Positions 11,436 to 42,005 of a stretch of 64,000 bases of DNA are shown piece by piece. The position numbers and the translations under genes were made by a program. Location: the NCBI GenBank assembly GCA_965221775.1, contig CBDCSU010000006.1, positions 2,176,001 through 2,240,000 of the forward strand, read 5' to 3'. The notes beneath the pieces are model-generated. The model had not been told where the DNA came from and did no database searches. It was given only the letters and a program-made list of their open reading frames with translations. Origin of the DNA: Candidatus Latescibacterota bacterium (GTDB taxonomy: Bacteria; Latescibacterota; UBA2968; UBA8231). Every line of letters starts with the position of its first letter. Position 1 is the first letter of the stretch.

Positions 11436-11885
11436 ATGACGAGAATGGATGTCAATCTGAGATTCGACCTCAGCCTCGACAGCGAGGAGCCCCGGCGCAT
11501 TGCCGAGCAGTTCGAACGCTTCGGGGCGGAGAACGGGCTTCCGGCCAGGACGATTTTCGGGTTCCAGTTGGCCCTGGACGAGATATTGACAAACGTGATA
11601 TCCTACGGATTCACGGAAGACGCTCAGGACGCGGTCATCACGGTGACTCTCCACCTCACTGACTCAGAGGTGGGAGCTGTTATCGTGGACAACGGCAAGC
11701 CCTTCAACCCCCTCGAGGACGCCGCCGAGCCCGATGTGGCCCTTCCTGCCTCGGACCGTACTATCGGCGGCCTCGGCATCCACCTAACCAAGGCATTCGT
11801 TCAGAAGCTCACCTACGAGCGGGTGGACGGGTGCAATCGCCTGAACCTCGTGCAGCCCTTGGAGGCTCCGGAGGACGATGCATGA
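11436..11885 (+). CDS. rsbW: RsbW/SpoIIAB-like anti-sigma factor Ser/Thr kinase (HATPase_c_2)
   Basis: LALDEILTNVISY (N box), IVDNGKPFNP (G1), IGGLGIHL (G2); start could be 11445. Confidence 0.85.
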   Translation: MTRMDVNLRFDLSLDSEEPRRIAEQFERFGAENGLPARTIFGFQLALDEILTNVISYGFTEDAQDAVITVTLHLTDSEVGAVIVDNGKPFNPLEDAAEPDVALPASDRTIGGLGIHLTKAFVQKLTYERVDGCNRLNLVQPLEAPEDDA

Positions 11886-12217
11886 ACGTTGAGACCAGCC
11901 AGACCGGAAGCACCGCCGTCGCCGCGGTCAGCGGCCGCGTGGATTCCGCGAACGCCAAGGAATTCGAAGAGGAGCTGAGTGCCATCATCGACAAGGGGGC
12001 CACCGGCCTCGTGGTCGATTGCGGCGAGCTCAACTACATAAGCAGCGCCGGGTTGCGGGTTTTCCTGATCGCCATCAGGAAGACGAGCGCAGCCGGGGGC
12101 GGTCTGGCCCTGTGCCGGGTGCCCGACCACATCAACGAAGTCCTGGAGATCAGCGGGTTCTCCCGTCTCGCCAAGGTCTTCGAAACAGTGGAGGAGGCGC
12201 GCGGCAGCTTCGGGTAG
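11882..12217 (+). CDS. rsbV: STAS-domain anti-sigma factor antagonist (RsbV/SpoIIAA-like)
   Basis: SGRVDSANA...LVVDCGELNYISSAGLRVFL...EVLEISGF; ATGA overlap with upstream gene. Confidence 0.9.
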   Translation: MNVETSQTGSTAVAAVSGRVDSANAKEFEEELSAIIDKGATGLVVDCGELNYISSAGLRVFLIAIRKTSAAGGGLALCRVPDHINEVLEISGFSRLAKVFETVEEARGSFG

Positions 12218-12371
12218 GCCCGAGGATCCAAGTGAGGTGGAGCGCATCGGCTTGGGGCCGCCGGCGTGGAATGTCGCCGGCACCGCCCGGCCAGGGCAGT
12301 GCTCGCGTGAACACTTCCCATCGAGAACCAAGAGTGGCATGTGCCGAATTCCAGCCGCAGGAGCATTCCGC

Positions 12372-13778
12372 ATGAGCGTACCTGAAGACCAACCTGCCAC
12401 GGGTTACCGCGCACCGATCGCAGCAGTGGCCGGGGCCGCCGGGATCCTCGCCATCGCCGCGATCCTCCTGGCTCCTTCGCCGGCGTCGGCCTCCGCCGAG
12501 ACCGGCTTCGTCCTCAACACCTTTTCCTTCCTGGTCTGGGGCGTCCTGATCATGTGGATGTGTGCCGGCTTCACCATGCTGGAGTCCGGCTCGGTGCGCT
12601 CGAAGAACGCCTCCATGATCTGCCTGAAGAACATCGGGCTCTACTCGATCGCCGGCCTCGCCTACTACATCATCGGCTACAGCCTCATGTACGTCGATGT
12701 GGGTGCGATGATCGGCTCCTTCGACCTCTTTCACGGTCCCTCCGAAGGTGAACGGGCCCTCCTCGGCGGGGACGAGGGGGCCCTGGCCGGCGTGGTGGCC
12801 AGCAACTACTCCACCATGTCGGACTGGTTCTTCCAGATGGTCTTCGTCGCCACCACCGCCTCGATCGTCTCCGGGACCCTGGCCGAGCGCGTCAAGCTAT
12901 GGGCCTTCTTCGCCTTCACCCTGGTCCTCACGGCAGTCATCTACCCCGTCGTCGGCGCCTGGACCTGGGGCGGGGGCTGGCTCTCGCAGATGGGTTTCCA
13001 GGACTTCGCGGGTTCCACCATCGTCCATTCCACCGGCGGCTGGGCGGCCCTGGCGGGCGCCATCGTCGTGGGACCGCGGTGGGGCAAGTTCCGCAAGGAC
13101 GGCTCGGTGAAGGTCACTCCGCCCTCCAACATCCCCGCCGTCACCCTCGGGGTCTTCATCCTCTGGCTGGGCTGGTTCGGCTTCAACGGCGGCTCCCAGC
13201 TGGCCCTTGCCGGCGTGTCCGACGCGGTGGCCATGAGCAATGTCCTTGTCAACACCAACCTCGCCGCCGCGGCGGGCGTGGTGACGGCGATCGTCGTGTC
13301 GCGGCCCATCCTCGGGCGGACCGATCTCTTCGCCGCCCTCAACGGCGCCATCGCCGGCCTGGTGGCGATCACGGCCGGACCGGACATCCTCGATGCCCGG
13401 TGGGCGATCGTCATCGGCGCCGTGGGAGCGGTCCTGTGCACGGCGGGACTGAAGCTGCTGGAGCGCCTGCGGATCGACGACGTGGTCGGCGCGGTTCCCG
13501 CCCATCTCCTGGCCGGCATCTGGGGCACCCTGGCGGTCTGCATCGCCGCGGGCGGGAGCTTCGTGGTGCAGCTCATCGGCGTGGTGAGCGTGGGGGGCTT
13601 CGTCTTTCTCGTGTCCCTCCTGCTGTGGACCGTGCTGAACAGGACCGTGGGCGCGCGGGTCTCGCGCGACGTGGAGGACATCGGCCAGGACGCGGGTGAG
13701 CTGGGAATCGACGCCTATCCCGAGTTCGCCCTCATGGTCGATCCCGAGGAGGGGGGAGACTTCCGGGACCCGGACTGA
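12372..13778 (+). CDS. amtB: Ammonium transporter (Amt family)
   Basis: AGFTMLESG, FFQMVF, DFAGSTIVHSTGG, LWLGWFGFNGGS, NGAIAGLVAIT, DDVVGAVPAH; both pore histidines present. Confidence 0.95.
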   Translation: MSVPEDQPATGYRAPIAAVAGAAGILAIAAILLAPSPASASAETGFVLNTFSFLVWGVLIMWMCAGFTMLESGSVRSKNASMICLKNIGLYSIAGLAYYIIGYSLMYVDVGAMIGSFDLFHGPSEGERALLGGDEGALAGVVASNYSTMSDWFFQMVFVATTASIVSGTLAERVKLWAFFAFTLVLTAVIYPVVGAWTWGGGWLSQMGFQDFAGSTIVHSTGGWAALAGAIVVGPRWGKFRKDGSVKVTPPSNIPAVTLGVFILWLGWFGFNGGSQLALAGVSDAVAMSNVLVNTNLAAAAGVVTAIVVSRPILGRTDLFAALNGAIAGLVAITAGPDILDARWAIVIGAVGAVLCTAGLKLLERLRIDDVVGAVPAHLLAGIWGTLAVCIAAGGSFVVQLIGVVSVGGFVFLVSLLLWTVLNRTVGARVSRDVEDIGQDAGELGIDAYPEFALMVDPEEGGDFRDPD

Positions 13779-13812
13779 GCCGCTTCGGACTCACCGTCCG
13801 GCGAGCCGTCCC

Positions 13813-15246
13813 ATGGACTTCGACGCCTACGATCTCGATCCCGCGATCTACGACGAGATGTTCCTGCCCGACGGCACGCCGCGCGGGCACTTCCAGCCTC
13901 TGCACGATACCCTGAGGCAGCTCTCTGCGGAGGAAGCGGGGCGGATCCAGGAGCGGGTGACGCGCTCCTTCTCCAACGAGGGTATCACCTTCACCGTCTA
14001 CGGCGACGAAGAGGCGGACGAGCGCATCATCCCCGTGGACTGCGTTCCACGCATCCTCTCCGCCGAGGAGTGGCTGCACCTGGAGGCGGGGCTCACCCAG
14101 CGCCTGGCCGCCCTGAACCGCTTTCTGGAGGACGTGTACGGGGGGGCCCGCATCATCGCCGACGGCGTGGTCCCCGCCGACCTGGTGCGCGGCTGCCCCC
14201 AGTACCGCGTCGAGATGTGCGGGGTCCCGGTTCCCCACGGCACCTGGGTCGCCGTCTGCGGCACCGACCTGGTGCGTACCAACGATGGCTGGCGGGTGCT
14301 CGAGGACAACCTGCGGGTGCCCTCCGGGGTGTCCTACATGATCGCCAACCGCAAGGTGGTCAAGTCGAGCCTGCGCCGCCTCTACCGCGACTGCCGGGTG
14401 CGGGAGGTCGAGCAGTACGGGCAGGTGCTGCTCGAGACCCTTCGCGAGCTGGCCCCCGATGGACGCTCCGACCCCTGCATCGCCCTGCTCACCCCCGGAG
14501 TCGCCAACTCGGCCTTCTACGAGCACATCTTCCTGGCCCAGGAGATCGGAGCTACTCTCGTCGAAGGCCGCGACCTGCTGGTCAACGACGGTTTCGTCTA
14601 CATGCGCACCACCGAAGGGCTGCGACGGGTGGACGTCATCTACCGCCGCGTGGACGACGACTTCATCGATCCCCTCGTCTTCCGCCCCGATTCCCTCCTC
14701 GGAGTGCCGGGGCTGATGCACGCCTGCAAGAGCGGGCACGTGGCCCTGGCCAACGCCCCGGGGACGGGGGTGGCCGACGACAAGAGCGTCTACGCCTTCG
14801 TCCCCGACATGATCCGCTATTACCTCGGCGAGGAGCCGGTCCTCGCCAACGTCGAGACCTACCTGTGCCGAAGGCCTCGCGACCTGGAGTACACCCTCGA
14901 CAACCTGCAGGACCTCGTCGTCAAGCGGGTGGGCGAGTCCGGGGGCTACGGCATGCTCATCGGCCCCCATGCGACCGCGGAGGAGCGCGGCGCCTACGCC
15001 GAGGAGCTTCGCGCCGACCCGGCGGGATTCATCTCGCAACCGGTGCTGGCCCTGTCGCGCGCGCCCTGCTGCATCGAGGGCCGCCCGGAGGCGCGCCACG
15101 TCGACCTGCGCCCCTTCATCCTCCACGGCCGCGAGACCCGCATCGTTCCCGGGGCCTTCTGCCGGGTGGCGCTGCGCCGGGGCAGCCTCGTGGTGAACTC
15201 GAGCCAGGGCGGCGGCGGCAAGGACCTCTGGGTACTGGAGAGCTGA
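13813..15246 (+). CDS. Circularly permuted ATP-grasp (type 2) protein, predicted peptide ligase
   Basis: YDEM, GITFTVY, LEDNLRVPSGVSY, VDVIYRRVDDDFIDP, NAPGTGVADDK, SGGYGM, HVDLRPF, VVNSSQGGGGKD. Confidence 0.92.
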   Translation: MDFDAYDLDPAIYDEMFLPDGTPRGHFQPLHDTLRQLSAEEAGRIQERVTRSFSNEGITFTVYGDEEADERIIPVDCVPRILSAEEWLHLEAGLTQRLAALNRFLEDVYGGARIIADGVVPADLVRGCPQYRVEMCGVPVPHGTWVAVCGTDLVRTNDGWRVLEDNLRVPSGVSYMIANRKVVKSSLRRLYRDCRVREVEQYGQVLLETLRELAPDGRSDPCIALLTPGVANSAFYEHIFLAQEIGATLVEGRDLLVNDGFVYMRTTEGLRRVDVIYRRVDDDFIDPLVFRPDSLLGVPGLMHACKSGHVALANAPGTGVADDKSVYAFVPDMIRYYLGEEPVLANVETYLCRRPRDLEYTLDNLQDLVVKRVGESGGYGMLIGPHATAEERGAYAEELRADPAGFISQPVLALSRAPCCIEGRPEARHVDLRPFILHGRETRIVPGAFCRVALRRGSLVVNSSQGGGGKDLWVLES

Positions 15247-16221
15247 ATGCTCGCGCGCAGCGCCCAGGGACTCTACTGGATGGGCCGCTACCTCGAGCGG
15301 GCGGAACAGCTCTGCCGTCTGTTGCGGCTGCAGGTGGAGGCCCTGGTGGACCGGCCCGTGGAGGAGATCCACTACGGCTGGAGCCGGATCTACGCCGGCC
15401 TCGGCCGGCTGCCTCCGGGCGGGGACCTCGGCACCGGCGGCAGCGACGACTACGTCCTGGCCGACTCGTACACCCTCGCCGGGGATCTCACTTTCGAGCG
15501 CTCCAACCCCGATTCGGTGCGCCGCTGCTTCGCCCTGGGCCGCGAGAACGCCCGCCAGATGCGCAACTGCATCAGCGCCGAGATGTGGACCTGTCTCAAC
15601 CTCTCGTGGCTGCGCATCCGCGACCTCGGCATCGAGGACATCTGGAAGGTCTCGCCGGAGAGCTTCTACGCCGAGACCACCCGCCAGATCGACACCTTCC
15701 ATGGGGTCGCCGACGCGACCATGTACCGCGACGAGGGCTGGTGCTTCATGCGCATCGGGCGGTTCCTGGAGCGAGCCCAGCTCCTGGCGTCCTTCCTCCT
15801 GGCCCAGCTGGCCGAGCGCGACCAGGGCGGGACCTCCGACACCGGCTGGACGAGTCTGCTGCGCGCCTGCCAGGCCTTCGACACCTACAAGTCCAGCTAC
15901 AGCGTCGAGATCCAGGGGGACCGCGTGCTGGATCTGCTGGTCACCGATCCCCGGCTGCCCGGGTCCCTGTGCCGTTCCCTCGACGCCCTGGCCGCCGAGC
16001 TCGCGGCCACGGGTCCGGGCCCGGGCGCGAAAGCCGGGGCGGCGGCGGACCGGCTCTCCGGCCGGCTGTGCGCCCTGATCCGATACGAATGGCCGGACCG
16101 GGTGGAGCCGGAGGAAAGGGAGGAGCTGCTCTCCCAGGTTGGGGAACACTGCCGAGAACTCCACCAGCTCGTCACCGAGGCGTACATCGATTACGCCGTC
16201 GAGGACTCCCCGGTGCACTGA
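15247..16221 (+). CDS. Alpha-E domain protein (DUF403)
   Basis: MLARSAQGLYWMGRYLERAE, RENARQMR, second GRFLERA motif. Confidence 0.9.
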   Translation: MLARSAQGLYWMGRYLERAEQLCRLLRLQVEALVDRPVEEIHYGWSRIYAGLGRLPPGGDLGTGGSDDYVLADSYTLAGDLTFERSNPDSVRRCFALGRENARQMRNCISAEMWTCLNLSWLRIRDLGIEDIWKVSPESFYAETTRQIDTFHGVADATMYRDEGWCFMRIGRFLERAQLLASFLLAQLAERDQGGTSDTGWTSLLRACQAFDTYKSSYSVEIQGDRVLDLLVTDPRLPGSLCRSLDALAAELAATGPGPGAKAGAAADRLSGRLCALIRYEWPDRVEPEEREELLSQVGEHCRELHQLVTEAYIDYAVEDSPVH

Positions 16222-16225
16222 CGCA

Positions 16226-17209
16226 ATGACCGGAGCCGTCCGCTACGAGATCGAGCACGTCTCCCGCTACAGCTACGACAGCAGCGTGCGCCAGTGCGTG
16301 ATGCTGCTCTGTCTGGAGCCGCTGCAGGACCATCGGCAGCGGCTCCTCGACTTCGAGATCGAGACGAGTCCTGCCGCGTCCCTCAACCGCGAGTCGGACT
16401 GTTTCGGCAACGCCCGCCACCTCCTCGCTCTGCACCGGACGCACCGCGCCCTGGAGATCACCACCCGGGCCGCCGTCGACGCGGTCCCCGCTCCCGGGCT
16501 CCCGGAGCGTCTCGGGACCGGCGCCTGGGAGGAGACCCGCTCGGCGGTGGGTTCCTTCGCAGACTGGAGCTTCACGAGCCCGAGTGACCTTGTGCGGCCC
16601 TCGCCGGGTCTGGAGGCATTCGTCCAGCGGCATGGCATCGAGCCCGGCGGGGACCCCCTCGAGAGCCTGTCGAGGCTCTCGGACACCCTCCATCGCTGCC
16701 TGGAGTACATTCCGGGAAGCACCACGGCCGAGTCTTCGGTGGAGCACATCCTGGAGACCGGGCGCGGCGTCTGCCAGGACTACTCCCACCTCATGATCGC
16801 CATAGCGCGCTCCTGGGGGATCCCCTCCCGCTATGTCTCGGGTTACCTTCGCCAGGCTGCGGGCGACGGCGGACAGGCGCCGGTCAACGCTACCCACGCA
16901 TGGGTCGAGTGCCGGCTGCCCGGGCTCGGCTGGGTGGGCTTCGATCCGACCAACCAGAGCCGCGCCGGCGGCGGGGGGGAGGTGCGGATCGCCACCGGAC
17001 GGGACTACCGGGACGTGTCGCCCACCCGGGGGGTCCTGCGAGGCGGCGGCGGGATGAAGCTGGAGGTGGAGGTTCGGGTGGACGAGTCCGGTGGATCCCC
17101 GCCCCGCGGCACCGGCCACGGGGCCGCGGCGAGCCCCAACGGCTCTGACCGCGAGGTCGGGGTTGACATGCACCGTGGCGCTGCCATGGCGGCAGGCCCG
17201 GCATCGTGA
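16226..17209 (+). CDS. Bacterial transglutaminase-like protein
   Basis: YEIEHVSRYSY N-domain; GVCQDYSH (Cys), THAWVE (His), GFDPTN (Asp), GRDYRDVSP. Confidence 0.92.
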   Translation: MTGAVRYEIEHVSRYSYDSSVRQCVMLLCLEPLQDHRQRLLDFEIETSPAASLNRESDCFGNARHLLALHRTHRALEITTRAAVDAVPAPGLPERLGTGAWEETRSAVGSFADWSFTSPSDLVRPSPGLEAFVQRHGIEPGGDPLESLSRLSDTLHRCLEYIPGSTTAESSVEHILETGRGVCQDYSHLMIAIARSWGIPSRYVSGYLRQAAGDGGQAPVNATHAWVECRLPGLGWVGFDPTNQSRAGGGGEVRIATGRDYRDVSPTRGVLRGGGGMKLEVEVRVDESGGSPPRGTGHGAAASPNGSDREVGVDMHRGAAMAAGPAS

Positions 17210-17770: not shown

Positions 17771-19024
17771 ATGCGGAGCCCGATCAGGAAACTTCGATTC
17801 GCCCTGGCCGTCGCCGTGCTGGTCTCGTGCGGCGGCGACGATGAACCGGTGGGCGGTGAGGTGGGCGCCGACGCCGTGGAGATCGGCGCCGGCGAGGCGG
17901 TGCAGATCCGCTCCCTCCTATCCATCACCGGGGCGGCGTCCCTCGGCGGGGCCCTGCGCTTCGGGTGCGAGCTGGCCGTGGCGGACTACGGCAGCGTCCA
18001 CGGTCACCCGGTCGATCTCGGCGAAGCGATGGACGCCATGTGCTCGCCGGAGGGGGGCCGCGCAGGCGCCGAGCAGGTCGCTGCCGACGCCCAGGTGCTG
18101 GGCGTCGTCGGCACCTCCTGCTCGGCGGCGGCGGTGGCCGCGTCGCCGGTGATCAGCGAGGCGGGACTGGTGATGGTCTCGCCGAGCAACACCTCCCCCA
18201 ACCTCACCTCCGATCTGGCCGGCAACGCCAGTTCCGATCACCACGCAGGCTACTTCCGCGTCTCCAACAACGACCTCTACCAGGCCCGGGCGGTGGCCGA
18301 CTTCGCCTACAATGAACTGGGCCTGCGGCGCATGGCCGCCGTCGACGACGGCGACCCGTACACCACGGCCCTGGTGAGCGCCTTCGCCTCGGCCTTCCGC
18401 GCGATTGGCGGAGAGGTTCCCGTCACCTCCACGATCGACAAGGGCGAGACCGACATGACCGCCGTCCTCGACGAATTCGCGGAGGCCGGCCCCGACGGCA
18501 TCTTCTTTCCCCTCTTCGAAGTCGAGGGCACGCCCTTCGCCGAGCAGGCGCGGACCTTCGACGGCCTGGAAGGGGCGACGCTGATCACCGGCGCGGCCCT
18601 CTTCGTCTCGGAGTTCCTCGGGACTCCGCAGTCGGAGGGCATGTACTTTGCGGGGCCGGAGACGGACCTCGGATCGAACGTCAACGAGTCGACGGGGAAG
18701 AGCGCGGGGGAGGTCCTCGCCGCCTTCGAGTCCGCGTACGGCGTCCCGTCTTCTCCCTACTGGGCCCACGCCTACGACGCCACGACGGTGCTGCTCAGCG
18801 CCATCGAATCCGCGGCCGAGGTAGACGGCGGCAGCATGCGCGTGGAGCGGGTGGCCCTGCGGGAGCAGCTCCGAGCGACGCGGGACTTCGGGGGCCTCAT
18901 CGGGACCCTCTCCTGCGACGACTTCGGCGACTGCGGCACCGGGCGAGTCAACATCTACCACCACACCGACCCGGGCGTGACGGACACGGCGAAGCTGCCG
19001 GTGGTCTACCGGTTCTCCCCATGA
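17771..19024 (+). CDS. LivJ/LivK-like periplasmic binding lipoprotein (PBP type 1)
   Basis: Lipobox LVSC; VVGTSCSAAA, MVSPSNTSP, YFRVSNND, AHAYDAT; no ABC permease or ATPase adjacent. Confidence 0.85.
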   Translation: MRSPIRKLRFALAVAVLVSCGGDDEPVGGEVGADAVEIGAGEAVQIRSLLSITGAASLGGALRFGCELAVADYGSVHGHPVDLGEAMDAMCSPEGGRAGAEQVAADAQVLGVVGTSCSAAAVAASPVISEAGLVMVSPSNTSPNLTSDLAGNASSDHHAGYFRVSNNDLYQARAVADFAYNELGLRRMAAVDDGDPYTTALVSAFASAFRAIGGEVPVTSTIDKGETDMTAVLDEFAEAGPDGIFFPLFEVEGTPFAEQARTFDGLEGATLITGAALFVSEFLGTPQSEGMYFAGPETDLGSNVNESTGKSAGEVLAAFESAYGVPSSPYWAHAYDATTVLLSAIESAAEVDGGSMRVERVALREQLRATRDFGGLIGTLSCDDFGDCGTGRVNIYHHTDPGVTDTAKLPVVYRFSP

Positions 19025-20977: not shown

Positions 20978-21889
20978 TCAGACCAGCTTCCTCTGCTCTA
21001 GGAACTCACGCACCACCGCGGCGCATTCCTCGGGCTGCTCGAGCTGCAGAAGGTGGGTCGCCTCGGGGAGGAAGTCGTACTCCACGCTCAGGATACCGCT
21101 GAGGTCCATGGTAGGCAGGTAGGAGTACGGCAGGGTGGGATCGGCGCCGAGGACCTTGATCGGGCCATGGAGCGTCTCGAAGTCCACGAGCACCGCAAAG
21201 GCACGGGCGAACTCCACGACCTGCGCCTCGTACTCGCGCGGACACCGAAGCTCATAGCCGTCTCCGGACGCGGATTCGCGCAACGTCGTCTTGGCCACGA
21301 GATCGAATACGCCGGGCACGGCGCGCTGGAAGATCGGGAGGAAGCCGAGGAGATCGACGAGCTGCTCCCTGGTCTGGAAGCGAGCGCTACGGCGCCGGGT
21401 CAGGGCCGTCGTACGCGCCACCGCCGCATCGAATTGCTCGTAGCTGTCGCCGGGCTTGCACAGGGGCGGATCGAACAGAAAGCACGCCGAGAATTCGCTG
21501 ACCCGGGTGGACGACAGCAGCGTCGTCAGCGCCGAAACCGAATGAAAGACACCGATCTTCGGTTTTTTGCCGAAGTGGCGATCGATGGCTTGAAGGATTC
21601 GGTCGTGATCACTGACGAAGGTCGGCACATTGTGGTTGTCCTGGGAGCTGACGGCATTCCAACCGTGGTTTCTGAGGTCGTAGATGATCAGGTCGAAGTC
21701 GTCGGCCAGGAGGGACCAGAAGGGGTAGTAGAGATCGATGGCGAGTCCGTTGCCGTGGCTCAGAACCAGCCGTGTCCCTTCCGGGTTTCCGTGACGGCGC
21801 AAAGTGATGACGGTGTCGGCGTCCACGGGAACATCCAGGGTGGACAGCGGCTCCGGGATCTCCCACAAGGCTTGTGCAGTCGCGGTCAA
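20978..21889 (-). CDS. supD: Alpha/beta-hydrolase of the sup cluster (SupD-like)
   Basis: LSHGNG, YDLRNHG, FHSVS nucleophile elbow, ATHLLQLEQP; TTG start overlaps the PPTase stop. Confidence 0.75.
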   Translation of the reverse strand: MTATAQALWEIPEPLSTLDVPVDADTVITLRRHGNPEGTRLVLSHGNGLAIDLYYPFWSLLADDFDLIIYDLRNHGWNAVSSQDNHNVPTFVSDHDRILQAIDRHFGKKPKIGVFHSVSALTTLLSSTRVSEFSACFLFDPPLCKPGDSYEQFDAAVARTTALTRRRSARFQTREQLVDLLGFLPIFQRAVPGVFDLVAKTTLRESASGDGYELRCPREYEAQVVEFARAFAVLVDFETLHGPIKVLGADPTLPYSYLPTMDLSGILSVEYDFLPEATHLLQLEQPEECAAVVREFLEQRKLV

Positions 21890-22611: not shown

Positions 22612-22630
22612 TGGCCTGGGGCCCCCGTTC

Positions 22631-22685
22631 AAATGAAAACGGCGGCTTCCCGACCGGCCGTGTCGGCCCGCGTGGAAAGCCGCCG
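22631..22685 (-). terminator. Intrinsic terminator downstream of the ACP gene
   Basis: Minus strand CGGCGGCTTTCC...GGAAGCCGCCG stem with inner GGCCG-ACA-CGGCC hairpin, followed directly by TTTTCATTT. Confidence 0.65.
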
Positions 22686-22729: not shown

Positions 22730-22966
22730 TCAGGCGTCGAGGAAATCGATCAGTTCCCGGACCGAGTTGATCTTCCCACAGTCTTCGGGAGAAAAGCTGA
22801 CATCGAATTCCTTCGCCACCACCCTCGCGAAGGCAACCAGATCGACGGAGGAAATGCCTGCCGCGAGAAGGCTGGAGTTCAGGTCCTCCGGCAGTTCCAC
22901 AGGTTTTCCGTCAACTTCGAGGTTGTCCTGGATGAGCTTGCGGACGCGATCTTCGGTCGAGGCCAT
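22730..22966 (-). CDS. supB: Free-standing acyl carrier protein (SupB-like)
   Basis: 78 aa, acidic; AGISSVDLVAF (Ppant Ser), EFDVSF, SVRELIDFL; GGAAAGGA RBS. Confidence 0.85.
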   Translation of the reverse strand: MASTEDRVRKLIQDNLEVDGKPVELPEDLNSSLLAAGISSVDLVAFARVVAKEFDVSFSPEDCGKINSVRELIDFLDA

Positions 22967-23010
22967 GTGGGTGATCCTTTCCCAATGAGTGGATGTCCGA
23001 AGGTAGAAAA

Positions 23011-23040
23011 AAGATAGAAGGAGGGGCAGGTCGATTTCAA
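23011..23040 (-). promoter_or_regulatory. Putative internal sigma70 promoter for the ACP gene, overlapping the PKS stop codon
   Basis: TTGAAA (23040-23035), 18-nt spacer, TATCTT (23016-23011) in a locally AT-rich stretch. Confidence 0.45.
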
Positions 23041-33278: not shown

Positions 33279-33330
33279 GATGCTCCATCCATGGGATTCG
33301 GAGGCGTCTCCAGATCGTTGCCTGCCCGGA

Positions 33331-33470
33331 ATGATACCATGTGCCGGGGCTGGAGGCGACCCTGACGAGACGACATTGCACGAGGACCGGGCGGGACCGG
33401 GAATCTTCGATGACGGCCCGGACGGCGGCTGCCGGAGGACTTGCCGGTGCAATGAAACATGCGCTACACT
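33331..33470. promoter_or_regulatory. Divergent promoter region between supA and the REC-PP2C operon
   Basis: Minus strand: extended -10 TGGTATCAT (33339-33331). Plus strand: TTGCCG (33441-33446), 18-nt spacer, TACACT (33465-33470). Confidence 0.45.
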
Positions 33471-33527
33471 CCCCGACTTGCGTACCTTACAGTCCGGCGA
33501 GCAGCGCATTGAAAGGCCAGTGACCGC

Positions 33528-34709
33528 ATGTCCAATCCTGGAACGACCATGGTGCCGAAGATCCTCGTGGTGGACGACGAGCCGGATCTCGAGGTGCTGC
33601 TCCGGCAGAAGTTCAGGCGCAAGACCCGCTCCGGACAGCTCAGCCTGATCTTCGCCCAGAACGGGGTCGAGGCCCTCAAGCAGCTCGAGGACCACGACGA
33701 TGTCGACCTGGTGCTTTCCGACATCAACATGCCCGAGATGGACGGTCTCACCCTCCTGCAGCAACTCGGCAGTCTCGACTACGACCTGCGGGCGGTGATG
33801 GTCACCGCCTACGGGGACATGAAGAACATCCGCACCGCCATGAACCGGGGCGCTTTCGACTTCGTCACCAAGCCGATCGACTTCGAGGATCTCGAGGCGA
33901 CGATCGACAAGACCCTCGAGCACCTGGTGATCATGCGAGAGGCGCTGCGGTCCCGGGACGAGCTGGTGGCCCTGCGCCAGGAACTCGGGGTGGCGGCGCA
34001 GATGCAGGAGTCCATCCTGCCCACCGATTTCCCCAGGGATCCCCGTTTCGAGCTTCACGCCTCCATGATCCCGGCGCGCGAGGTGGGCGGCGACTTCTAC
34101 GACTTCTTCCGGCTCGAGGATGAGCGCCTGGGTATCGTGGTGGCCGACGTATCCGGAAAGGGGGTGCCGGCGGCCCTCTTCATGATGGTGAGCCGCACCC
34201 TGATGAAGGGCACCGCCATCGGGGAGGGCGACCCGGGGGCCTGTCTCACCGAGGTGAACCAGCTCCTCACCGAGTCGAACGAGGAGTCGATGTTCGTCAC
34301 CGTCTTCTATACCAGCTTCAACCCGGAGACGGGGCACGTGGAATACGCCAATGCGGGGCACAATCTGCCGTACGTGGTCAAGCCCTCCGGCCAGGTCCGG
34401 CAGATCGACTGCCCCCCGGGTCTCGTCCTCGGCGTGCTTCCGGAGTTCGACTTTCCCGGCGGCAACCTCGACCTCGAGCCGGGAGACGCGCTGTTCTTCT
34501 ACACCGACGGCGTCAACGAGGCGATGGACGAGAACGGCGAGGAGTTCGGCGACGAGAGGCTGACCCGGGTCCTGGCGGAAGCCGCCGGATCGAGCGCCGC
34601 CGACTTCAGTCAGCGGATGGTGGAGGCCGTGCACGCCCACGCCGGCGAGGCCCCCCAGTCCGACGACATCACCTGCATGACCCTCCGCTACCTGGGAGGT
34701 GGCTCCTGA
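33528..34709 (+). CDS. Response regulator receiver + PP2C/SpoIIE phosphatase (RsbU/RsbY-like)
   Basis: REC: VVDDEPD, LSDINMP, FVTKP; PP2C: VGGDFYD, VADVSGKG, YTDGVNE, SDDIT. Confidence 0.92.
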   Translation: MSNPGTTMVPKILVVDDEPDLEVLLRQKFRRKTRSGQLSLIFAQNGVEALKQLEDHDDVDLVLSDINMPEMDGLTLLQQLGSLDYDLRAVMVTAYGDMKNIRTAMNRGAFDFVTKPIDFEDLEATIDKTLEHLVIMREALRSRDELVALRQELGVAAQMQESILPTDFPRDPRFELHASMIPAREVGGDFYDFFRLEDERLGIVVADVSGKGVPAALFMMVSRTLMKGTAIGEGDPGACLTEVNQLLTESNEESMFVTVFYTSFNPETGHVEYANAGHNLPYVVKPSGQVRQIDCPPGLVLGVLPEFDFPGGNLDLEPGDALFFYTDGVNEAMDENGEEFGDERLTRVLAEAAGSSAADFSQRMVEAVHAHAGEAPQSDDITCMTLRYLGGGS

Positions 34710-34710
34710 G

Positions 34711-35898
34711 ATGACCCGGCTGGCCCTCCTCGCCGCCGCGGCGTTCGGGCTGGCCCCGGCGGCGGCGGTCGGGCAGGGGGCGCAGGGAGGCGGCGACGGG
34801 GTCCATGCCGACTCCATCCTCTTCGGCCAGTCGGCGGCGCTGAGCGGCCCGGCCGCCGAACTGGGCCGCAACATGAACCTCGGCATCCGCGCCGCCTTCG
34901 AGGAGGTCAACCGGTCCGGCGGCATCGGCGGCCGCCAACTGAAGCTCCTGGTGCGGGACGACGGTTACGAGCCCGAAGCCGCCGTCGCCAACACCCGGGA
35001 GCTCATCGCCCGCGGCGTCTTCGGCCTCATCGGCGCCGTCGGCACACCCACTTCCAACGCCGCCGAGCCGATCGCCAGCGGCGCCTCGGTCCCCTACATC
35101 GGACCCTTCACCGGCGCCGAGCTGCTCCGGGGGGACGACCAGCGCTACGTGGTGAACGTGCGCGCCTCCTACTTCCAGGAGACGGAAGAGATGGTGGCGC
35201 GGCTCACCGAGGACCTGGGCTTCCGCCGCATCGCCATCCTCTACCAGGACGACAGCTACGGCATGGCCGGCCTGACGGGGGTCCGCCAGGCCCTCGGCCG
35301 GCGCGGCATGGAGCTGGTGGGCGAGGTCACCTACATGCGCAACACGGTGGCCGTGAAGCGGGCCCTCCTCGGCCTTCAGGACAGCGACCCGGAGGCGGTC
35401 ATCATCATCGGCGCCTACCGCCCGGCGGCCCACTTCATCAAGTGGGCGCGGAAGATCGGCCTGGGCGCCGTCTTCGTGAACATCTCCTTCGTCGGCAGCA
35501 ACGCCCTGCTGCAGGAGCTGGGCCGCCACGGCGACGGCGTCGTGGTGACCCAGGTGGTGCCCTTCCCCCGGGACACCGGGATCCCGGTGGTGGTCCGCTA
35601 TCACGCCGCCCTGAAGGCGGTGGAAGCGGCGGCTCAACCGGGGTTCGTCTCCCTGGAGGGGTATCTCGCCGGGCGCCTGGTGGTCGATGCCCTGCGCGCC
35701 GCCACCGCCTCCGGCGACGGCGGACCGGTCCCGCCCACCCGCGAGGCCTTCCTCCGCGTTCTGGAGGAGGCCGGCCCCATCGACCTGGGGGGCTTCCGGG
35801 TCGAGTACGGACCGGGGGACAACCAGGGGTCCGACAGGGTCTTCCTGACCATGATCCGCGGGGGCCGGTTCGCCCCGGTGACCCACTTGTCGCGGTGA
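34711..35898 (+). CDS. Periplasmic ligand-binding protein (PBP type 1), orphan of any ABC transporter
   Basis: Signal peptide; GQSAALSGPAAELG, DDGYEP, GAVGTPT, NVRASY, SLEGYLAG. Confidence 0.85.
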   Translation: MTRLALLAAAAFGLAPAAAVGQGAQGGGDGVHADSILFGQSAALSGPAAELGRNMNLGIRAAFEEVNRSGGIGGRQLKLLVRDDGYEPEAAVANTRELIARGVFGLIGAVGTPTSNAAEPIASGASVPYIGPFTGAELLRGDDQRYVVNVRASYFQETEEMVARLTEDLGFRRIAILYQDDSYGMAGLTGVRQALGRRGMELVGEVTYMRNTVAVKRALLGLQDSDPEAVIIIGAYRPAAHFIKWARKIGLGAVFVNISFVGSNALLQELGRHGDGVVVTQVVPFPRDTGIPVVVRYHAALKAVEAAAQPGFVSLEGYLAGRLVVDALRAATASGDGGPVPPTREAFLRVLEEAGPIDLGGFRVEYGPGDNQGSDRVFLTMIRGGRFAPVTHLSR

Positions 35899-35903
35899 AG
35901 GCG

Positions 35904-38153
35904 ATGGACGACCGCATTCACGCCGCCTTCGCGTGGTTCCTGAAGCGGCTCCCGAGCCGTCTCGGGGCCCGTCTGCGCAGGGCCACGGGAGGCCGCTTCG
36001 GCATCGGCAGCCAGATCGTCGTGGTCCTGGGGGGCGGGGTGACCCTGACCATCGGCGCGGTGGTCCTGGCGCTGGTGCTGATGAGAGTCGTGAGCTCCCG
36101 CCAGAGCGAGGTCACCGAGGGCCACATGCCGGCCCTGGTGGCCGCCTTCGAGGTCGCCCGCAGCAGCTCCGAGCTGGTGCGGGCATCGCCCCGGCTCCTG
36201 GCCGCCGCCGATCCCGCGGGCCTCAAGCAGGTGGGACGGGACGTGGCCCGGGAGGAAGAAATCCTCCGGAGGTGGCTCGTGGAGGTGAAGCGGGCCGAGT
36301 CCAAGGGCGGCGTCGAGGGCGGGGTGGGGCACCGGGTCGTGCCGCTGGCCGACAGTCTGGTGGAGAGCATCACCCGGATCCAGGAGTCGGTGAGCCGCAG
36401 GATGGCGTACCGGGACCGGCTCCGGGAGCTGGAAGGGCGGGTGGAGAGCCTGGCCCTGGAGCTGCAGCTGTTGCTGGAGGAGCTGGTGGACGACCAGCAC
36501 TTCTTCATGCACACCGGACTCCGCGGCCTCGACGACGCCCCGGTCCCCGCCGCCCGGCGGACGTCGAGGTCCGAGCTCGCCCACTACGCCGGTCTCCTCG
36601 ACTTCCAGGCTTCGCAGAACGTCACCACCACCTTCGTGCAGCAGGCGATGACCGAGGATGACCCCGAGCTGTTGCGGGCGAACCGGGAGCGGGTGGAGAC
36701 GGCCATGAGCGACGTGAGGAGGGCCCTGTCCGGGATCCGGCCCGGGATCCGGTCGCGGCTCCAGCCTCGCGTGGAGGTCCTGAGAGATCTCTACGCCGCG
36801 TCCGACGGCGCTCTCGAGACCCGAACCCGCGAACTGGCGGAGATCCGCCGCTCCGAGGATCTCCTGGCGCGCAATCAGCAGACGACGGCGGACCTGGTGG
36901 CGATGGTGGAGGGCCTGGTGAAGGACGCCGAGGCCTCCACCCGGAACGCGGCCAATCGCTCGCGCAATCTGGTGCGCCTCGGGTTCTGGTTCCTGCTCGG
37001 GGTCACCCTGCTGACCCTGGTGGCTGCCTGCTTCGTCTGGAAGCTCTTCGGCGAGCGTCTGCTGGCGCGGATGGACAGCCTCTTCGACGCCACCCGGCGG
37101 ATGTCGGAGGGAGACCTGGAGGTGCAGGTGCGGATCGAGGGCAACGACGAGGTGACCGACATGGCCGGGGCCCTGGAGATCTTCCGGCAGCACGCCGTCG
37201 AGGTGCAGCGGCTCAATCTCGTGGAGAAGCTGGCGGCGGAGGTGCAGGCCAAGAACTCGGAGCTCGAGGCCACCAACTCCGAGCTGGAAACGACGCTGGA
37301 AGACCTCAAGCGCACCCAGCAGCAGGTCATCAGCCAGGAGAAGCTGGCCTCCCTGGGCGCCCTCACCGCCGGCATCGCCCACGAGATCCGGAACCCCCTG
37401 AACTTCGTGAACAACTTCGCCGGCCTGTCGTCGGAGCTGATCGACGAGTTGCGGGAAGAGCTGAAACGGGAGGGGAACGGCGAGGGCGAGGGGGACGGCG
37501 AGGGCGGCATGGACCGGGAACTGGTGGAGGAGATCCTCGACGATCTCGGCGGGAACGTGGTCAAGGTCAGGGAGCACGGCGAGCGCGCCAACCGCATCGT
37601 CGAGGGCATGCTGGCCCACTCCCGCAACGAGGCGGGACAGGTGGAAGCGGTGGACATCAACCTGATGGTGGACGAGTACGCCAAGCTCGCCTATCACGGT
37701 CTCAGGGGAACCGACTCGACCTTCAACGTCAACCTGGTGCAGGAGTTCGACGACAACGCCGGCGAGGTCGATGCCGTCTCCCGTGACTTGAGCCGGGTCT
37801 TCCTCAACGTGGTCACCAACGCCTGCCATGCCACCATCGCCCGCGGCAAGGAGGCGGAAGGGCCCTACGAGCCCACCGTGAGCCTGAAGACCGAGAGCCG
37901 CGGGGAGACCGTCTGCATCTCCATCCGCGACAATGGCACGGGTATCCCGGACCACATCGTCGACAAGATCTTCGACCCCTTCTTCACCACCAAGTCGGGG
38001 ACCCAGGGCACCGGTCTGGGGCTGTCGATCTCCCACGAGATCATCCGCGAGCACGGCGGGGAGTTCCAGGTGGAGACCGAGGTGGGGGAGTACACCGAGT
38101 TCAGGATCGTGCTGCCGCGAAAGCGCCTCGCTCCAGCGGCTGAGGGTTCCTGA
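35904..38153 (+). CDS. Membrane sensor histidine kinase (large helical periplasmic domain, HAMP, HisKA, HATPase)
   Basis: Two TMs; GNDEVTDMA (HAMP); QEKLASLGALTAGIAHEIRNPLNF (H box); DNGTGI, FDPFFTTK, GTGLGL; start may be GTG 35895. Confidence 0.9.
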   Translation: MDDRIHAAFAWFLKRLPSRLGARLRRATGGRFGIGSQIVVVLGGGVTLTIGAVVLALVLMRVVSSRQSEVTEGHMPALVAAFEVARSSSELVRASPRLLAAADPAGLKQVGRDVAREEEILRRWLVEVKRAESKGGVEGGVGHRVVPLADSLVESITRIQESVSRRMAYRDRLRELEGRVESLALELQLLLEELVDDQHFFMHTGLRGLDDAPVPAARRTSRSELAHYAGLLDFQASQNVTTTFVQQAMTEDDPELLRANRERVETAMSDVRRALSGIRPGIRSRLQPRVEVLRDLYAASDGALETRTRELAEIRRSEDLLARNQQTTADLVAMVEGLVKDAEASTRNAANRSRNLVRLGFWFLLGVTLLTLVAACFVWKLFGERLLARMDSLFDATRRMSEGDLEVQVRIEGNDEVTDMAGALEIFRQHAVEVQRLNLVEKLAAEVQAKNSELEATNSELETTLEDLKRTQQQVISQEKLASLGALTAGIAHEIRNPLNFVNNFAGLSSELIDELREELKREGNGEGEGDGEGGMDRELVEEILDDLGGNVVKVREHGERANRIVEGMLAHSRNEAGQVEAVDINLMVDEYAKLAYHGLRGTDSTFNVNLVQEFDDNAGEVDAVSRDLSRVFLNVVTNACHATIARGKEAEGPYEPTVSLKTESRGETVCISIRDNGTGIPDHIVDKIFDPFFTTKSGTQGTGLGLSISHEIIREHGGEFQVETEVGEYTEFRIVLPRKRLAPAAEGS

Positions 38154-38188
38154 TTCCACCAGCCAGGATTGGATTCCGAGGACAAGCG

Positions 38189-38959
38189 ATGAAGATCGAG
38201 TGCGCCGCCGTGGCGGCCCTGATGCTGGCCACCGGGGCCGCGGCGCCGGCGCAGACCGAGTTCCACCTGCAGTACGGCGAGTTGCTGAACCCGTTCTCCG
38301 CCACCGAAGAGGCGACCCTCGTGGTCACCGTCCAGAGGGCTTCCGGATGGCAGTTCGGGGACAGCTTCTTCTTCGTCGATTACCTCGACGACGGCGGCGA
38401 GGACGGCTTCAACGACAGGGAGTTCTACGCCGAGTGGTATCCGACGCTCAGCCTGGGCAAGCTCTCCGGCCGGGACCTGCGCCTGGGGCCGGTGGCCGAC
38501 CTCTCCCTCGTGGCCGGTATCAACGCCGGAGGCGACGGCAAGGTCGTGAAGTACCTCCCCGGTCTGAGGGCCTCCTGGGAGGTGCCGGGATTCCTGTTCC
38601 TCAACACCGATCTCACCGCCTATATCGACGATAACGCCGGCCTCGCCGCCGGCGGCCCCCCGGAGACCGGAAACAGCTTCACGCTCGACGTCAGCTGGGC
38701 CTTCCCCTTCGAGGCGGCCGGCCAGTCCTTCGCCGTCGGCGGCCACGCCGAGTACGTCGCCGGCAGCACCGACGAGGTCGATGGCGAGGTGAGGGGGTGG
38801 ATTCTCGCTCAGCCCCAGCTCACGTGGGACCTGGGCCGGGCGCTCATCGGGGCTCCCGGCCGGCTGCTGGCCGGCATCGAGTACCAGCACTGGCGCAACA
38901 AGCTCGGAACGGACCAGCAGGAGAGCACCGCCCAGCTGCTGCTGGTCTGGCGTCCCTGA
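38189..38959 (+). CDS. Tsx/OmpK-like outer-membrane channel (nucleoside-channel family)
   Basis: Signal peptide; SGWQFGDSFFFVD, FYAEWYPTLSLGKL, QPQLTWDLG, GIEYQHWRNKLG. Confidence 0.7.
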   Translation: MKIECAAVAALMLATGAAAPAQTEFHLQYGELLNPFSATEEATLVVTVQRASGWQFGDSFFFVDYLDDGGEDGFNDREFYAEWYPTLSLGKLSGRDLRLGPVADLSLVAGINAGGDGKVVKYLPGLRASWEVPGFLFLNTDLTAYIDDNAGLAAGGPPETGNSFTLDVSWAFPFEAAGQSFAVGGHAEYVAGSTDEVDGEVRGWILAQPQLTWDLGRALIGAPGRLLAGIEYQHWRNKLGTDQQESTAQLLLVWRP

Positions 38960-38971
38960 TCGGAGAGGGTC

Positions 38972-40711
38972 TTGGAAACCGCGCACGGCAACGAGAACAT
39001 CCGCTTCGAGCCGGATGAACAACCCCCCCACCCGGTTGCCGCCGGGGTCGGCTTTCAGGCCGCGGTGGTCGTCCTCGCCCCCGTGGTGCTCAGCGCCATC
39101 ATCATCGGGCGCGCCGGTGGTCAGGGTCCGGACTACCTGGCCTGGACCGCCTTCGCGGCGCTGGTGGTGAGCGGCGTTACCACGGTCCTGCAGGCGGTCC
39201 GCCTCGGGCGGATCGGGGCCGGCCACGTGCTCATCATGGGCACCTCCGGCGCCTTCATCGCGGTCTGCATCGCGGCCCTGGCCCAGGGGGGACCGCCCCT
39301 GATGGCGAGCCTGATCGCGGTCTCCGCGCTCTTCCAGTTCGCCCTGTCGGCGCGGCTCTCCCTGGTGCGCCGGGTGATCACCCCGGTCGTCTCCGGAACG
39401 GTGATCATGCTGATCGCGGTGACGGTCATGCCGATCATCTTCGGCCTGCTCACCGATGTGCCCGAGGGCACGCCCCCCGCCGCGGCGCCCTCCGCGGCGG
39501 GGGCGACCTTCCTCGCCCTGGTGGTGCTGGCCCTGCGCGCCCCGCCGGCCTGGCGGCTGTGGGCGCCCCTCATCGGCATCGCCGTGGGCTGCGTCACCGC
39601 CGTCCCCTTCGGGCTGTATGACGCCCAGTCCGTGATCGATGCGCCCTGGATCGGCTTTCCCGACAGCGCATGGCCGGGGCTGGACCTGAGCCTGGGCCCG
39701 GAGTTCTGGGCCCTGCTGCCGGCCTTCGTGGTCGTCACCGTCGTCGGCGCCATCGAGACCATCGGCGACGGGGTCGCCATCCAACGGGTCTCGAGGCGCC
39801 AGCCGCGGGCCACCGATTTCCGCGTGGTCCAGGGCGCTCTCAACGCCGACGGGGTGGGCAACCTGCTGTCCGGACTCGCCGGGACCCCTCCCAACACGAC
39901 CTACTCGACGAGCATATCCCTGGCCGAGCTCACCGGGGTCGCCGCGCGCCGGGTCGGGGTGTATATCGGCGTGATCTTCATGGTCCTGGCCCTCTCGCCC
40001 AAGGTGACGGCCCTGGTGATCGCCATCCCCAACCCCGTGGGGGCGGCGTATGTCACCCTGCTCATTGGCATGCTCTTCGTGCAGGGGATGAAGATCGTCG
40101 TCGCCGACGGTCTCGATCACCGCAAGGCGGCGATGGTGGGGCTGTCGTTCTGGATCGGCGTCGGCTTTCAGAACCAGGTGATCTTCGCCGATCTGCTGGG
40201 GAAGACCTGGGGCACCCTCCTCGGCAACGGCATGACCGCCGGCGGGATGGCGGCCATCGCCCTCACCGCCTTCATGGAGATCACCGCTCCCCGGCGCCGT
40301 CGCCTGGAGGCGAAGCTGGCGGCGGCGTCGCTGCCGGAGATCGACGCCTTCCTCGAGAAGTGGGCGGCCCGGGCGGGCTGGGGCGAGGCGTCGACGGGGC
40401 GGCTGCGCTCGGCGGGAGAGGAGACGCTGGCGATCCTGTTGCAGCAGGCGGAGGAGGACGGGGCGGCCGGCAGGGACCGGCGGCTGATCCTCACGGCGCG
40501 TCTTGCCGAGGGTGCCATGGAACTGGAGTTCTCGGCATCCTCCGGCGCCGGGAACCTGGAGGACCGGCTGGCCTTCCTGACCGACCAGCCCGAGTTCGTG
40601 GACGAGCGCGAGATTTCCTTCCGCCTGTTGCGGCACTATGCCACCTCGGTGCGCCACCAGAAGTACCACGACGTGGACATCGTCGCGGTGCAGGTCGCGC
40701 AATCGCCCTGA
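38972..40711 (+). CDS. NCS2 permease fused to a degenerate RsbW-like domain (copy 2)
   Basis: TTG start; LQAVRLGRIGAGHV, RRVITPVVSGTVIMLI, IETIGD, GTPPNTTYS; C-terminal domain from 40292 homologous to copy 1. Confidence 0.8.
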   Translation: METAHGNENIRFEPDEQPPHPVAAGVGFQAAVVVLAPVVLSAIIIGRAGGQGPDYLAWTAFAALVVSGVTTVLQAVRLGRIGAGHVLIMGTSGAFIAVCIAALAQGGPPLMASLIAVSALFQFALSARLSLVRRVITPVVSGTVIMLIAVTVMPIIFGLLTDVPEGTPPAAAPSAAGATFLALVVLALRAPPAWRLWAPLIGIAVGCVTAVPFGLYDAQSVIDAPWIGFPDSAWPGLDLSLGPEFWALLPAFVVVTVVGAIETIGDGVAIQRVSRRQPRATDFRVVQGALNADGVGNLLSGLAGTPPNTTYSTSISLAELTGVAARRVGVYIGVIFMVLALSPKVTALVIAIPNPVGAAYVTLLIGMLFVQGMKIVVADGLDHRKAAMVGLSFWIGVGFQNQVIFADLLGKTWGTLLGNGMTAGGMAAIALTAFMEITAPRRRRLEAKLAAASLPEIDAFLEKWAARAGWGEASTGRLRSAGEETLAILLQQAEEDGAAGRDRRLILTARLAEGAMELEFSASSGAGNLEDRLAFLTDQPEFVDEREISFRLLRHYATSVRHQKYHDVDIVAVQVAQSP

Positions 40712-42002: not shown

Positions 42003-42005
42003 GGG

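Follow-up and report, generated by a model that had tools for sequence, protein, structure and literature searches.

Partner switches are textbook regulators of sigma factors. Here we describe a switch of this type, encoded in a 64,000-nucleotide stretch of DNA from Candidatus Latescibacterota bacterium (GenBank assembly GCA_965221775.1, contig CBDCSU010000006.1, positions 2,176,001 to 2,240,000; below, the window), whose output, judging from genome-wide profile searches, is probably not a sigma factor. Sequence comparisons support the presence in the window of one complete two-component-driven partner switch, split in this lineage by the sup polyketide synthase (PKS) cluster. Together with modelled structures, they lead us to favour, if only by a little, the view that the STAS protein of this switch gates NCS2-type permeases bearing an RsbW-like C-terminal tail. 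What is new from this window is the full sensor-to-STAS circuit, its conserved operon form, a genome-level containment of the tail by the switch, and a tie to sup through an adjacent permease.

In the mechanism that we propose, a ligand would enter through a Tsx-like outer-membrane channel and then be bound by a periplasmic binding protein (PBP), which, along with a possibly TorS-like membrane histidine kinase, would sense the small molecule. By analogy with RsfS/RsfR and RsbK/RsbY, the histidine kinase would set the activity of a phosphatase comprising a receiver and a PP2C domain (REC-PP2C), and this enzyme, together with the serine kinase RsbW, would decide whether Ser54 of the STAS protein is phosphorylated; for this last step, the motifs and the proteins are seen in the translations and the chemistry is presumed. 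Unphosphorylated STAS would, most likely, dock on the kinase-dead RsbW-like tail of the NCS2-type permeases and thereby switch transport on or off post-translationally. A phosphate on Ser54 would, in the modelled complex, face Glu53 and Glu54 of the tail, and so release the STAS protein.

The switch proteins and their operon form

The host genome (G000; 5.36 Mb in 6 contigs, 96.8% complete) has as its closest public relatives metagenome-assembled genomes (MAGs) labelled Gemmatimonadaceae or Latescibacterota. The GC content of the window is high (0.65-0.75). Its genes are laid out as a plus-strand left block, a minus-strand sup block in the middle and a plus-strand right block; in the list of open reading frames (ORFs) and the Pfam scans, each gene named in the initial annotation was found on the strand assigned to it there. 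The left block opens with an RsbW-like serine kinase of 149 aa (11436..11885, +; Pfam HATPase_c_2, E 1.2e-19), in which E49 and N53 of the N-box, D85 and the GGLG motif are invariant across 10/10 orthologues, placing it among the GHKL serine kinases of the RsbW/SpoIIAB type with ATP-binding motifs. Directly following it is a STAS protein of the anti-anti-sigma type (11882..12217, +; Pfam STAS, E 4.4e-20; NCBIfam ant_ant_sig, TIGR00377, 75.6 bits against a cut-off of 53.45). Its ORF spans 11831-12217, and the probable start at 11882 overlaps the RsbW stop and gives the 111 aa of its homologues. The phosphorylatable serine of its YISSAG motif is Ser54, and both Ser54 and Ser55 are invariant in 26/26 sequences.

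The right block begins with the REC-PP2C phosphatase of 393 aa (33528..34709, +; SpoIIE, E 1e-55; Response_reg, E 3.3e-26). The SpoIIE match covers profile positions 2-191 of 192, and the translation displays both the acceptor Asp of the receiver and the PP2C Asp motifs that we take to bind metal. It is followed by PBP2, a periplasmic protein of the Peripla_BP_6 family with a signal peptide (34699..35898, +; E 3.8e-58), whose best solved relative is 4kv7 (E 6.2e-62), an entry that names no ligand, and by a sensor histidine kinase (35904..38153, +, with 35904 the probable start). Its translation and Pfam matches give the order transmembrane (TM) helix, periplasmic helical domain of ~330 aa, TM helix, HAMP, HisKA and HATPase_c. 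An orthologue of this kinase in a related locus (L019) matches TorS_sensor_domain (PF21689, E 9.2e-10); the window's own kinase has no match to that domain at E <= 0.1, and the binding protein beside it is of the Peripla_BP_6 family and not TorT-like. The block continues with the Tsx-like outer-membrane channel (38189..38959, +), a marginal assignment at 28.6 bits against a Channel_Tsx cut-off of 27.2, and ends with an NCS2-type permease (38972..40711, +; Pfam, E 5.9e-47); in many related loci too, the channel gene lies directly upstream of the permease gene.

Sole-copy parts and gene order elsewhere argue that the two blocks form one switch, as the circuit running from the histidine kinase through REC-PP2C to the STAS/RsbW pair in the initial annotation had supposed. 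REC-PP2C is the only SpoIIE-type PP2C match in the genome, and the short open frames of the genome contain a single HATPase_c_2 match (RsbW) and a single STAS match, the other six and three matches to these domains lying in frames of 463-1075 aa and 551-767 aa, respectively. In five other loci, the STAS, REC-PP2C, RsbW, PBP and histidine kinase genes are contiguous and co-directional: L087, labelled Dehalococcoidia, L091 from a relative of the same class, L033 labelled Opitutales, L089 labelled Actinomycetes and L088 labelled Binatia, in the last of which RsbW stands ahead of STAS. All parts of the switch also lie within 12 kb in L019, where no PKS is present: STAS, REC-PP2C and RsbW are on the first strand, the Tsx-like channel and a tailed permease are on the opposite strand, and a second STAS, RsbW, PBP, the histidine kinase with the TorS_sensor_domain match, an unassigned ORF and the ammonium channel AmtB are back on the first strand. 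Since the parts that are split in the window form a single operon in four other labelled phyla and in the same-class relative, the wrapping of the switch around sup is local and, judged from gene order, it is a rearrangement particular to this lineage.

The divergent spacer between supA and REC-PP2C measures 249 bp (33279..33527). The promoter-like boxes that had been reported in it could not be recovered, as a scan of 33150-33650 with sigma-70-type consensus sequences, the one promoter type that it covered, gave zero sites on both strands. Contigs from RNA libraries of two studies (X18, X19 and X20) include near-identical pieces over the REC-PP2C, PBP2, histidine kinase, Tsx and permease genes, some of which span the kinase/Tsx and Tsx/permease junctions; given possible carry-over of DNA, these attest to the presence of the genes and do not prove that they are expressed or form an operon. 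Of the sampled sequence words, half or more were found in each of 17 run entries, mostly labelled sponge metagenome, one of which may be the source sample itself.

RsbW-like tails on the permeases and their proposed link to the switch

The window encodes two of these permeases. The permease adjacent to sup (19289..20959, +; Xan_ur_permease, E 1.2e-38) has an ORF open from 19094 and a called product of 556 aa, with a tail at ~20501-20956. In the second copy, at the end of the right block, the tail (150 aa) occupies 40262-40708. Aligned end to end, the two share 52% identity, and the alignment takes in the ~150 aa that extend C-terminally past the transporter core. A third permease of the NCS2 type with such a tail lies ~630 kb upstream of the window (G000:C6:1545215-1546900; L092:10228-11922, -) and is 63% identical to the window's second copy, bringing the genome total to three; a frame of SulP length with a STAS match is situated ~5 kb from this third copy.

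Relationships of the tail are hard to recover by ordinary searches. Against Pfam HATPase_c_2 the two window tails score 18.9 and 14.0 bits, below the cut-off of 27.4 (E 0.0016 for the sup-adjacent copy and 0.05 for the other), BLASTP of the tail against RsbW gave no significant match, and a tail profile run against PDB sequences returned nothing below E 0.5. Structure and profile comparisons are clearer. An AlphaFold model of the tail of the second permease, built on a 35-sequence alignment (mean predicted local distance difference test, pLDDT, 86.7), matched in Foldseek the anti-sigma factors UsfX (8ih8), RsbW (6m37) and SpoIIAB (1l0o/1tid/1th8) at E values of 5e-7 to 1e-5, with probability 1.00 for 8ih8, 6m37, 1l0o, 8jzt and 1tid; ordinary histidine-kinase domains matched the same fold only at E > 1e-3. 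The tail thus has a Bergerat-type alpha/beta fold closest to the anti-sigma kinases. Likewise, hhalign aligned the tails with ten cognate RsbW kinases of the switch at 88.7% probability over 116 columns.

Where the kinases have the N-box Glu, the tail retains a Glu-Glu pair in this alignment, reading EETL against the EE(L)xxN of the kinases, without the Asn, and its N-L-E-D stretch falls opposite their N-P-L-E-D. It is without the G1 Asp and has SLRL where the kinases have GGLG. The tails accordingly do not display the ATP-binding N-box, G1 and G2 motifs of the RsbW/SpoIIAB family, and they also fall below the Pfam gathering score. Lost motifs taken together with the fold and profile matches define a homologous domain that cannot be classed as an active member of the family; on fold and homology, the label of pseudo-RsbW given to it at the outset is borne out. 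A search at E <= 0.001 finds the tail in 2810 proteins, and there are 567 representative clusters. Xan_ur_permease is present in all of the 120 proteins listed, and in the full-length members among the clusters listed the tail occupies ~residues 430-580, the shorter ones having the appearance of fragments.

A complex of the STAS protein with the tail was modelled from alignments of 26 and 35 sequences, respectively. Its ipSAE interface score is 0.76 (0.72, 0.78 and 0.76 in individual runs), against 0.01 for the best of 3 controls; the score mark used is reached by 116/157 solved complexes and by 2/215 mismatched pairs. At least 83% of contacts recur between runs, and the partners have a pLDDT of at least 91. 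The modelled interface comprises tail residues 21-25, 50, 53-54, 56-57, 60 and 115-125 and STAS residues 21-26 (including D21), 54-56, 58-59, 62, 87 and 90-93. The conserved residues of the tail fall in this interface, and thus the invariant Glu54 and the near-invariant Glu53, Ser119, Arg121 and Leu122 would face Ser54 of the STAS protein in the model.

The tail and the switch also co-occur across genomes. In a first set of 61 genomes, comprising G000 and 60 relatives, the tail is present in 28 (a match in G042 being a fragment) and an orthologue of REC-PP2C, defined as a full-length match of at least 55% identity, in 29. All 28 tailed genomes hold the phosphatase, which occurs without a tail solely in G041; both are held by the same 8 of the 26 genera. 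STAS orthologues are present in 29/29 REC-PP2C genomes, mostly just upstream of the phosphatase. A second set of 41 genomes, centred on the Dehalococcoidia-labelled G061, has the tail in 16 and the REC-PP2C orthologue in 20, including 16/16 tailed genomes, with the phosphatase alone in G074, G082, G088 and G097. Over both sets, REC-PP2C is therefore present in 44/44 tailed genomes versus 5/58 without a tail. Each of the permease-bearing genomes of other labelled phyla holds one REC-PP2C orthologue (5/5); in an Alphaproteobacteria-labelled genome the PP2C part alone was matched, at 48% identity. This containment goes in one direction, from tail to switch, and is in keeping with a switch serving the permeases and perhaps other clients.

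Physical linkage is partial. REC-PP2C lies <= 10 kb from a tailed permease in 12/28 tailed relatives, STAS is directly upstream of the permease in L094, and STAS genes flank it in L019. Several observations weigh against a dedicated STAS-tail switch. In 11/28 of these genomes the distance from REC-PP2C to the nearest tail exceeds 100 kb, in 5/28 REC-PP2C is on another contig, and the 10-kb flanks of 80 permease loci, searched with locally built profiles, contain STAS in 5, RsbW in 4 and full-length REC-PP2C in 7. No tail was found in five REC-PP2C genomes (G041, G074, G082, G088 and G097), so that either the switch has, or can have, another target or tails were missed in them. The counts overstate independence, because the genomes are related and the genes may be transferred together. 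Finally, since complexes of RsbW with RsbV and of SpoIIAB with SpoIIAA have been solved, the interface score may reflect likeness to these and is not proof of binding.

Other possible outputs: sigma factors, structural tails and the sup cluster

The alternative that survives best, although we consider it unlikely, is that RsbW holds a sigma factor encoded elsewhere, the tails being inputs, or sinks that take up STAS to a degree set by transport state, in the manner of a transceptor, with transcription as the output. It draws on the intactness of RsbW, the classic sigma binder of its family, which keeps all of its kinase motifs, and on the five genomes that have the operon without any tail. Moreover, the histidine kinase/REC-PP2C/STAS logic of Mycobacterium smegmatis ends on SigF (PMC10950880). 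One of six RpoS/RpoD-like sigma factors of ~285 aa could be the ligand of RsbW, and this too counts against a switch directed at permeases. These six paralogs (L001-L006; ~280-290 aa) have mutual identities of 43-55%.

Profile searches speak against such an output. The genome has 21 Sigma70_r2 matches, none of them in the window, and across the whole genome no protein passes the SigB/F/G-type model (TIGR02980), the best score being 127 bits (cut-off 234). All of the six best candidates likewise fall below the cut-off of the FliA/WhiG model and score highest against the RpoS/RpoD models. A cognate group-3 sigma factor of the SigB/SigF type, as expected of a classical partner-switching system, was hence not found, which agrees with the earlier remark that no sigma factor is in view. 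Neither is a sigma domain encoded beside the operon, with 0/35 among the ORFs flanking four orthologous switch operons. By a crude test, RpoS-like counts in ten genomes of the genus, no extra sigma factor travels with the switch: there are 6 each in five genomes with the switch, and 3-13 in five without it.

A quite improbable alternative is that the tail serves the permease structurally or in dimerisation, unconnected with the switch, and that co-occurrence stems from DNA exchange among symbionts of the same habitat. Transfer is indeed suggested by orthologues of the permease and REC-PP2C at 53-67% identity in several labelled phyla, and most permease loci are without switch genes nearby. MAGs labelled Dehalococcoidia, Binatia, Actinomycetes, Alphaproteobacteria and Opitutales (among L007-L086) carry tailed permeases at 60-67% identity; such identity is far above expectation for lineages so distant and points to horizontal spread. 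Against a purely structural role stand the one-sided and complete containment of the tail by the phosphatase, the closeness of its profile to the cognate RsbW of the same operon, with the N-P-L-E-D-like stretch common to both, and the position of its most conserved residues in the modelled STAS interface. To these may be added the repeated occurrence of STAS and permease genes as direct neighbours, including in a table of PMC3908369.

The initial annotation had offered the permease fusions, AmtB or sup expression as candidate outputs. Fold, profile, co-occurrence and the modelled complex all speak for the first, and we found no support for control of sup expression. The PKS at the centre of the window is of the SupA type (23037..33278, -; 3413 aa from translation and Pfam), with the domain order KS-AT-DH-MT-ER-KR-ACP-KS-AT. 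With it on the minus strand are Pfam-assigned genes for an alpha/beta hydrolase (20978-22009), a phosphopantetheinyl transferase (PPTase; 21886-22632) and a free-standing acyl carrier protein (ACP; 22730-23146). By a definition of sup clusters that is second-hand, this assemblage qualifies, having a single large PKS, a methyltransferase, a full reducing loop, and ACP, PPTase, hydrolase and permease neighbours. A recent foreign origin of sup was considered and dropped, the GC of the PKS (0.70-0.74) being barely above that of its flanks. Orthologues of supA are present in 14/61 genomes (68-94% identity in the 13 relatives; two matches in G002 are fragments), and in 14/14 the MT-KR part of supA has a tailed permease 5-9 kb away. 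This permease is co-directional behind supA and the ACP gene in L093 and L096, convergent in the window and L095, and preceded by its own STAS gene in L094.

The rsb genes themselves do not keep this company. REC-PP2C is near supA only in G000, G004 and G007, 0.5-1.7 Mb away in G011, G039, G045, G054, G057 and G060 (6/14), and on a different contig in 5/14; hence, in terms of physical linkage, the Rsb genes are largely unlinked to sup in the relatives, and the wrap around sup, which had been taken as a meaningful feature, loses that standing. Read from its sequence, G006, a close relative, has lost sup by a deletion that left scars, and has kept the switch intact. Between its PBP1 and REC-PP2C genes lies a segment (L061:4324-4834) with a permease fragment (residues 422-484) and the first ~70 codons of supA. 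L039 retains PPTase and ACP and not the PKS. Sup is therefore tied to the switch only through the neighbouring tailed permease, and the flanking rsb genes make no such tie.

Least probable of all, and very unlikely, is that the switch controls sup expression through the shared divergent spacer or that STAS gates AmtB in place of GlnK: supA and REC-PP2C do diverge from the 249-bp spacer, the switch is present in 14/14 supA-bearing genomes, the AmtB gene of the window follows STAS without an adjacent P-II gene, and AmtB is inside the switch operon in L019, L021 and L061, but REC-PP2C stands at the megabase-scale distances from supA given above in 6 relatives, 15/29 switch genomes are without a supA orthologue at the threshold used, G006 dispensed with sup and not with the switch, the switch is without a DNA-binding output domain, and AmtB is absent from the operon in L087-L089 and L091. 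Two other AmtB genes of the genome, on C6 near 113 kb and near 547 kb, do have a P-II gene next to them.

In PMC3908369, SupE of an Aplysina symbiont clone is named in a table as a permease, and the table of a swf fosmid shows a 557-aa SupE homologue immediately upstream of swfA, with an anti-anti-sigma gene on either side. The passages and table consulted offer no interpretation of the SupE-like permease or of its STAS neighbours, and the name SupE does not appear among the homologues listed for the sup-adjacent permease. From the published table and the 556-aa product of our gene, that is, from description and size and not from sequence, the permease next to sup in the window probably corresponds to the SupE of the literature.

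Neighbouring genes, known systems and significance

The remaining genes of the window bear on what might be transported. Behind STAS lie AmtB (12237..13778, +, start uncertain; Ammonium_transp, E 6.8e-97), a trio of genes assigned by Pfam to circularly permuted ATP-grasp, Alpha-E and transglutaminase-like proteins (13696..17209, +, starts uncertain) and PBP1, a Peripla_BP_6 lipoprotein (17771..19024, +; E 2e-32) with a lipoprotein-type signal ending in LVSC, which also neighbours the sup-linked permease in L095. Across MAGs carrying three different phylum labels, members of the trio are found next to the switch operon: in L089 the operon is followed by ATP-grasp, Alpha-E and transglutaminase genes (763-4092) and in L088 it is preceded by ATP-grasp and Alpha-E (4723-7130). 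In L019 a GPP34 (GOLPH3-like) gene (L019:14201-14857, -) directly adjoins the STAS/REC-PP2C/RsbW operon. After the second permease, the window has genes with an MpaB/Lcp-type oxygenase domain and for an MMPL/RND-type transporter (40638-44291), which are syntenic in L007, L008, L009 and L061.

The permeases have a 14-TM NCS2 core, matching Xan_ur_permease at 160.7 and 133.3 bits (cut-off 27) and aligning to the UapA, UraA and SLC23A1 chains. The nucleobase-ascorbate transporter (NAT) motif is defined as E-x-x-G-D/H/G in transmembrane segment (TMS) 8 and Q/E/P-N-x-G-x-x-x-x-T-G/R/K in TMS10 (PMC5972032). Here the TMS8 motif is kept as ETIGD, and the TMS10 positions, taken from the UapA alignment, read T-S-I-S-L-A-E-L-T-G, with 3/5 specified positions failing; the scores are also below the cut-offs of both NCBIfam ncs2 (TIGR00801) and pbuX. 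By these sequence measures, the permeases are a divergent, non-canonical branch of NCS2. Their neighbours, namely the Tsx-like channel, two Peripla_BP_6 proteins and AmtB, suggest that the solute could be small and nitrogen-rich.

Among known systems, the closest is RsfS/RsfR-RsfB-RsbW1 (UsfX)-SigF of M. smegmatis and M. tuberculosis, in which the same logic runs from a histidine kinase through REC-PP2C to a STAS antagonist (PMC10950880; PDB 8ih8 and 8jzt). It is the anti-sigma factor UsfX of this very system, in complex with its STAS partner, that the fold of the permease tail matches best. In the mycobacterial case, the receptor is a free RsbW-type protein that holds SigF, whereas here it would be a dead domain fused to a 14-TM permease, in a genome where no SigF-type sigma factor was found. 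The sensors differ as well, being a PBP with a possibly TorS-like periplasmic domain here and CHASE3 in mycobacteria. In Bacillus cereus, the RsbK-RsbY-RsbV-RsbW-SigB system is reported to have, like the present one, a two-component input acting through a REC-PP2C regulator on a STAS/RsbW pair; it is said to differ in having SigB as the output in the same cluster, a hybrid kinase in RsbK and no involvement of a transporter.

Partner switches without a sigma factor also have reported precedents. HptB-HsbR-HsbA of Pseudomonas (PMC6482189) is one in which, as here, a STAS-type protein is toggled by a kinase and a PP2C phosphatase under REC control, and the same likeness holds for SypE-SypA of Vibrio fischeri (PMC10120452) and for SiaABC (PMC7647112), of which 6kko is among the fold matches of the tail. 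The reported targets of the three are soluble regulators (FlgM, diguanylate cyclases) or unassigned, and none is known to be a transporter-fused pseudo-kinase. By analogy, the closest architecture is that of the SulP/SLC26 carriers: a 7+7 TM inverted-repeat fold is common to SLC26 and SLC23/NCS2 (PMC6497670, PMC8256260), and both the SLC26 and the tailed NCS2 carriers end in a cytoplasmic domain drawn from the partner-switch toolkit. The SLC26 carriers bear the STAS half in cis, whereas in the tailed NCS2-type carriers it is the RsbW half that is attached, and STAS would come in trans and under phospho-control. Our literature search, thin on subscription journals, found no published description of an NCS2-type carrier with an RsbW-like tail. 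The cluster in the window likewise corresponds to the sup cluster of sponge symbionts (supA-supE), for which PMC3908369 and PMC4245539 give the same PKS order, a free ACP, a PPTase, a hydrolase and an adjacent permease.

If the proposed gating is right, a dead-kinase receptor built into a transporter would place uptake under direct post-translational control by a phospho-switch, a structural mirror of the STAS tail of SLC26. More tentatively, and as a possibility that we would place short of probable, the system may be a mobile, sigma-free transport switch, in which STAS plugs into dead RsbW tails, transferred among symbionts labelled as at least seven phyla, which through SupE would bring sup, a lipid PKS cluster long without explanation, and probably swf, under host-signal-dependent control of a cognate transporter. 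The tailed permease is fixed beside supA, and a homologue stands beside swfA in the published table (PMC3908369). No PKS families are more abundant in sponge microbiomes than sup and swf, both with functions that are unsettled, and the finding gives a concrete handle: the ligand of the PBP, the substrate of the permease and the proposed interaction of STAS with the tail. The spread of the system across MAGs of many labelled phyla suggests that it may form part of a shared toolkit of the sponge habitat.

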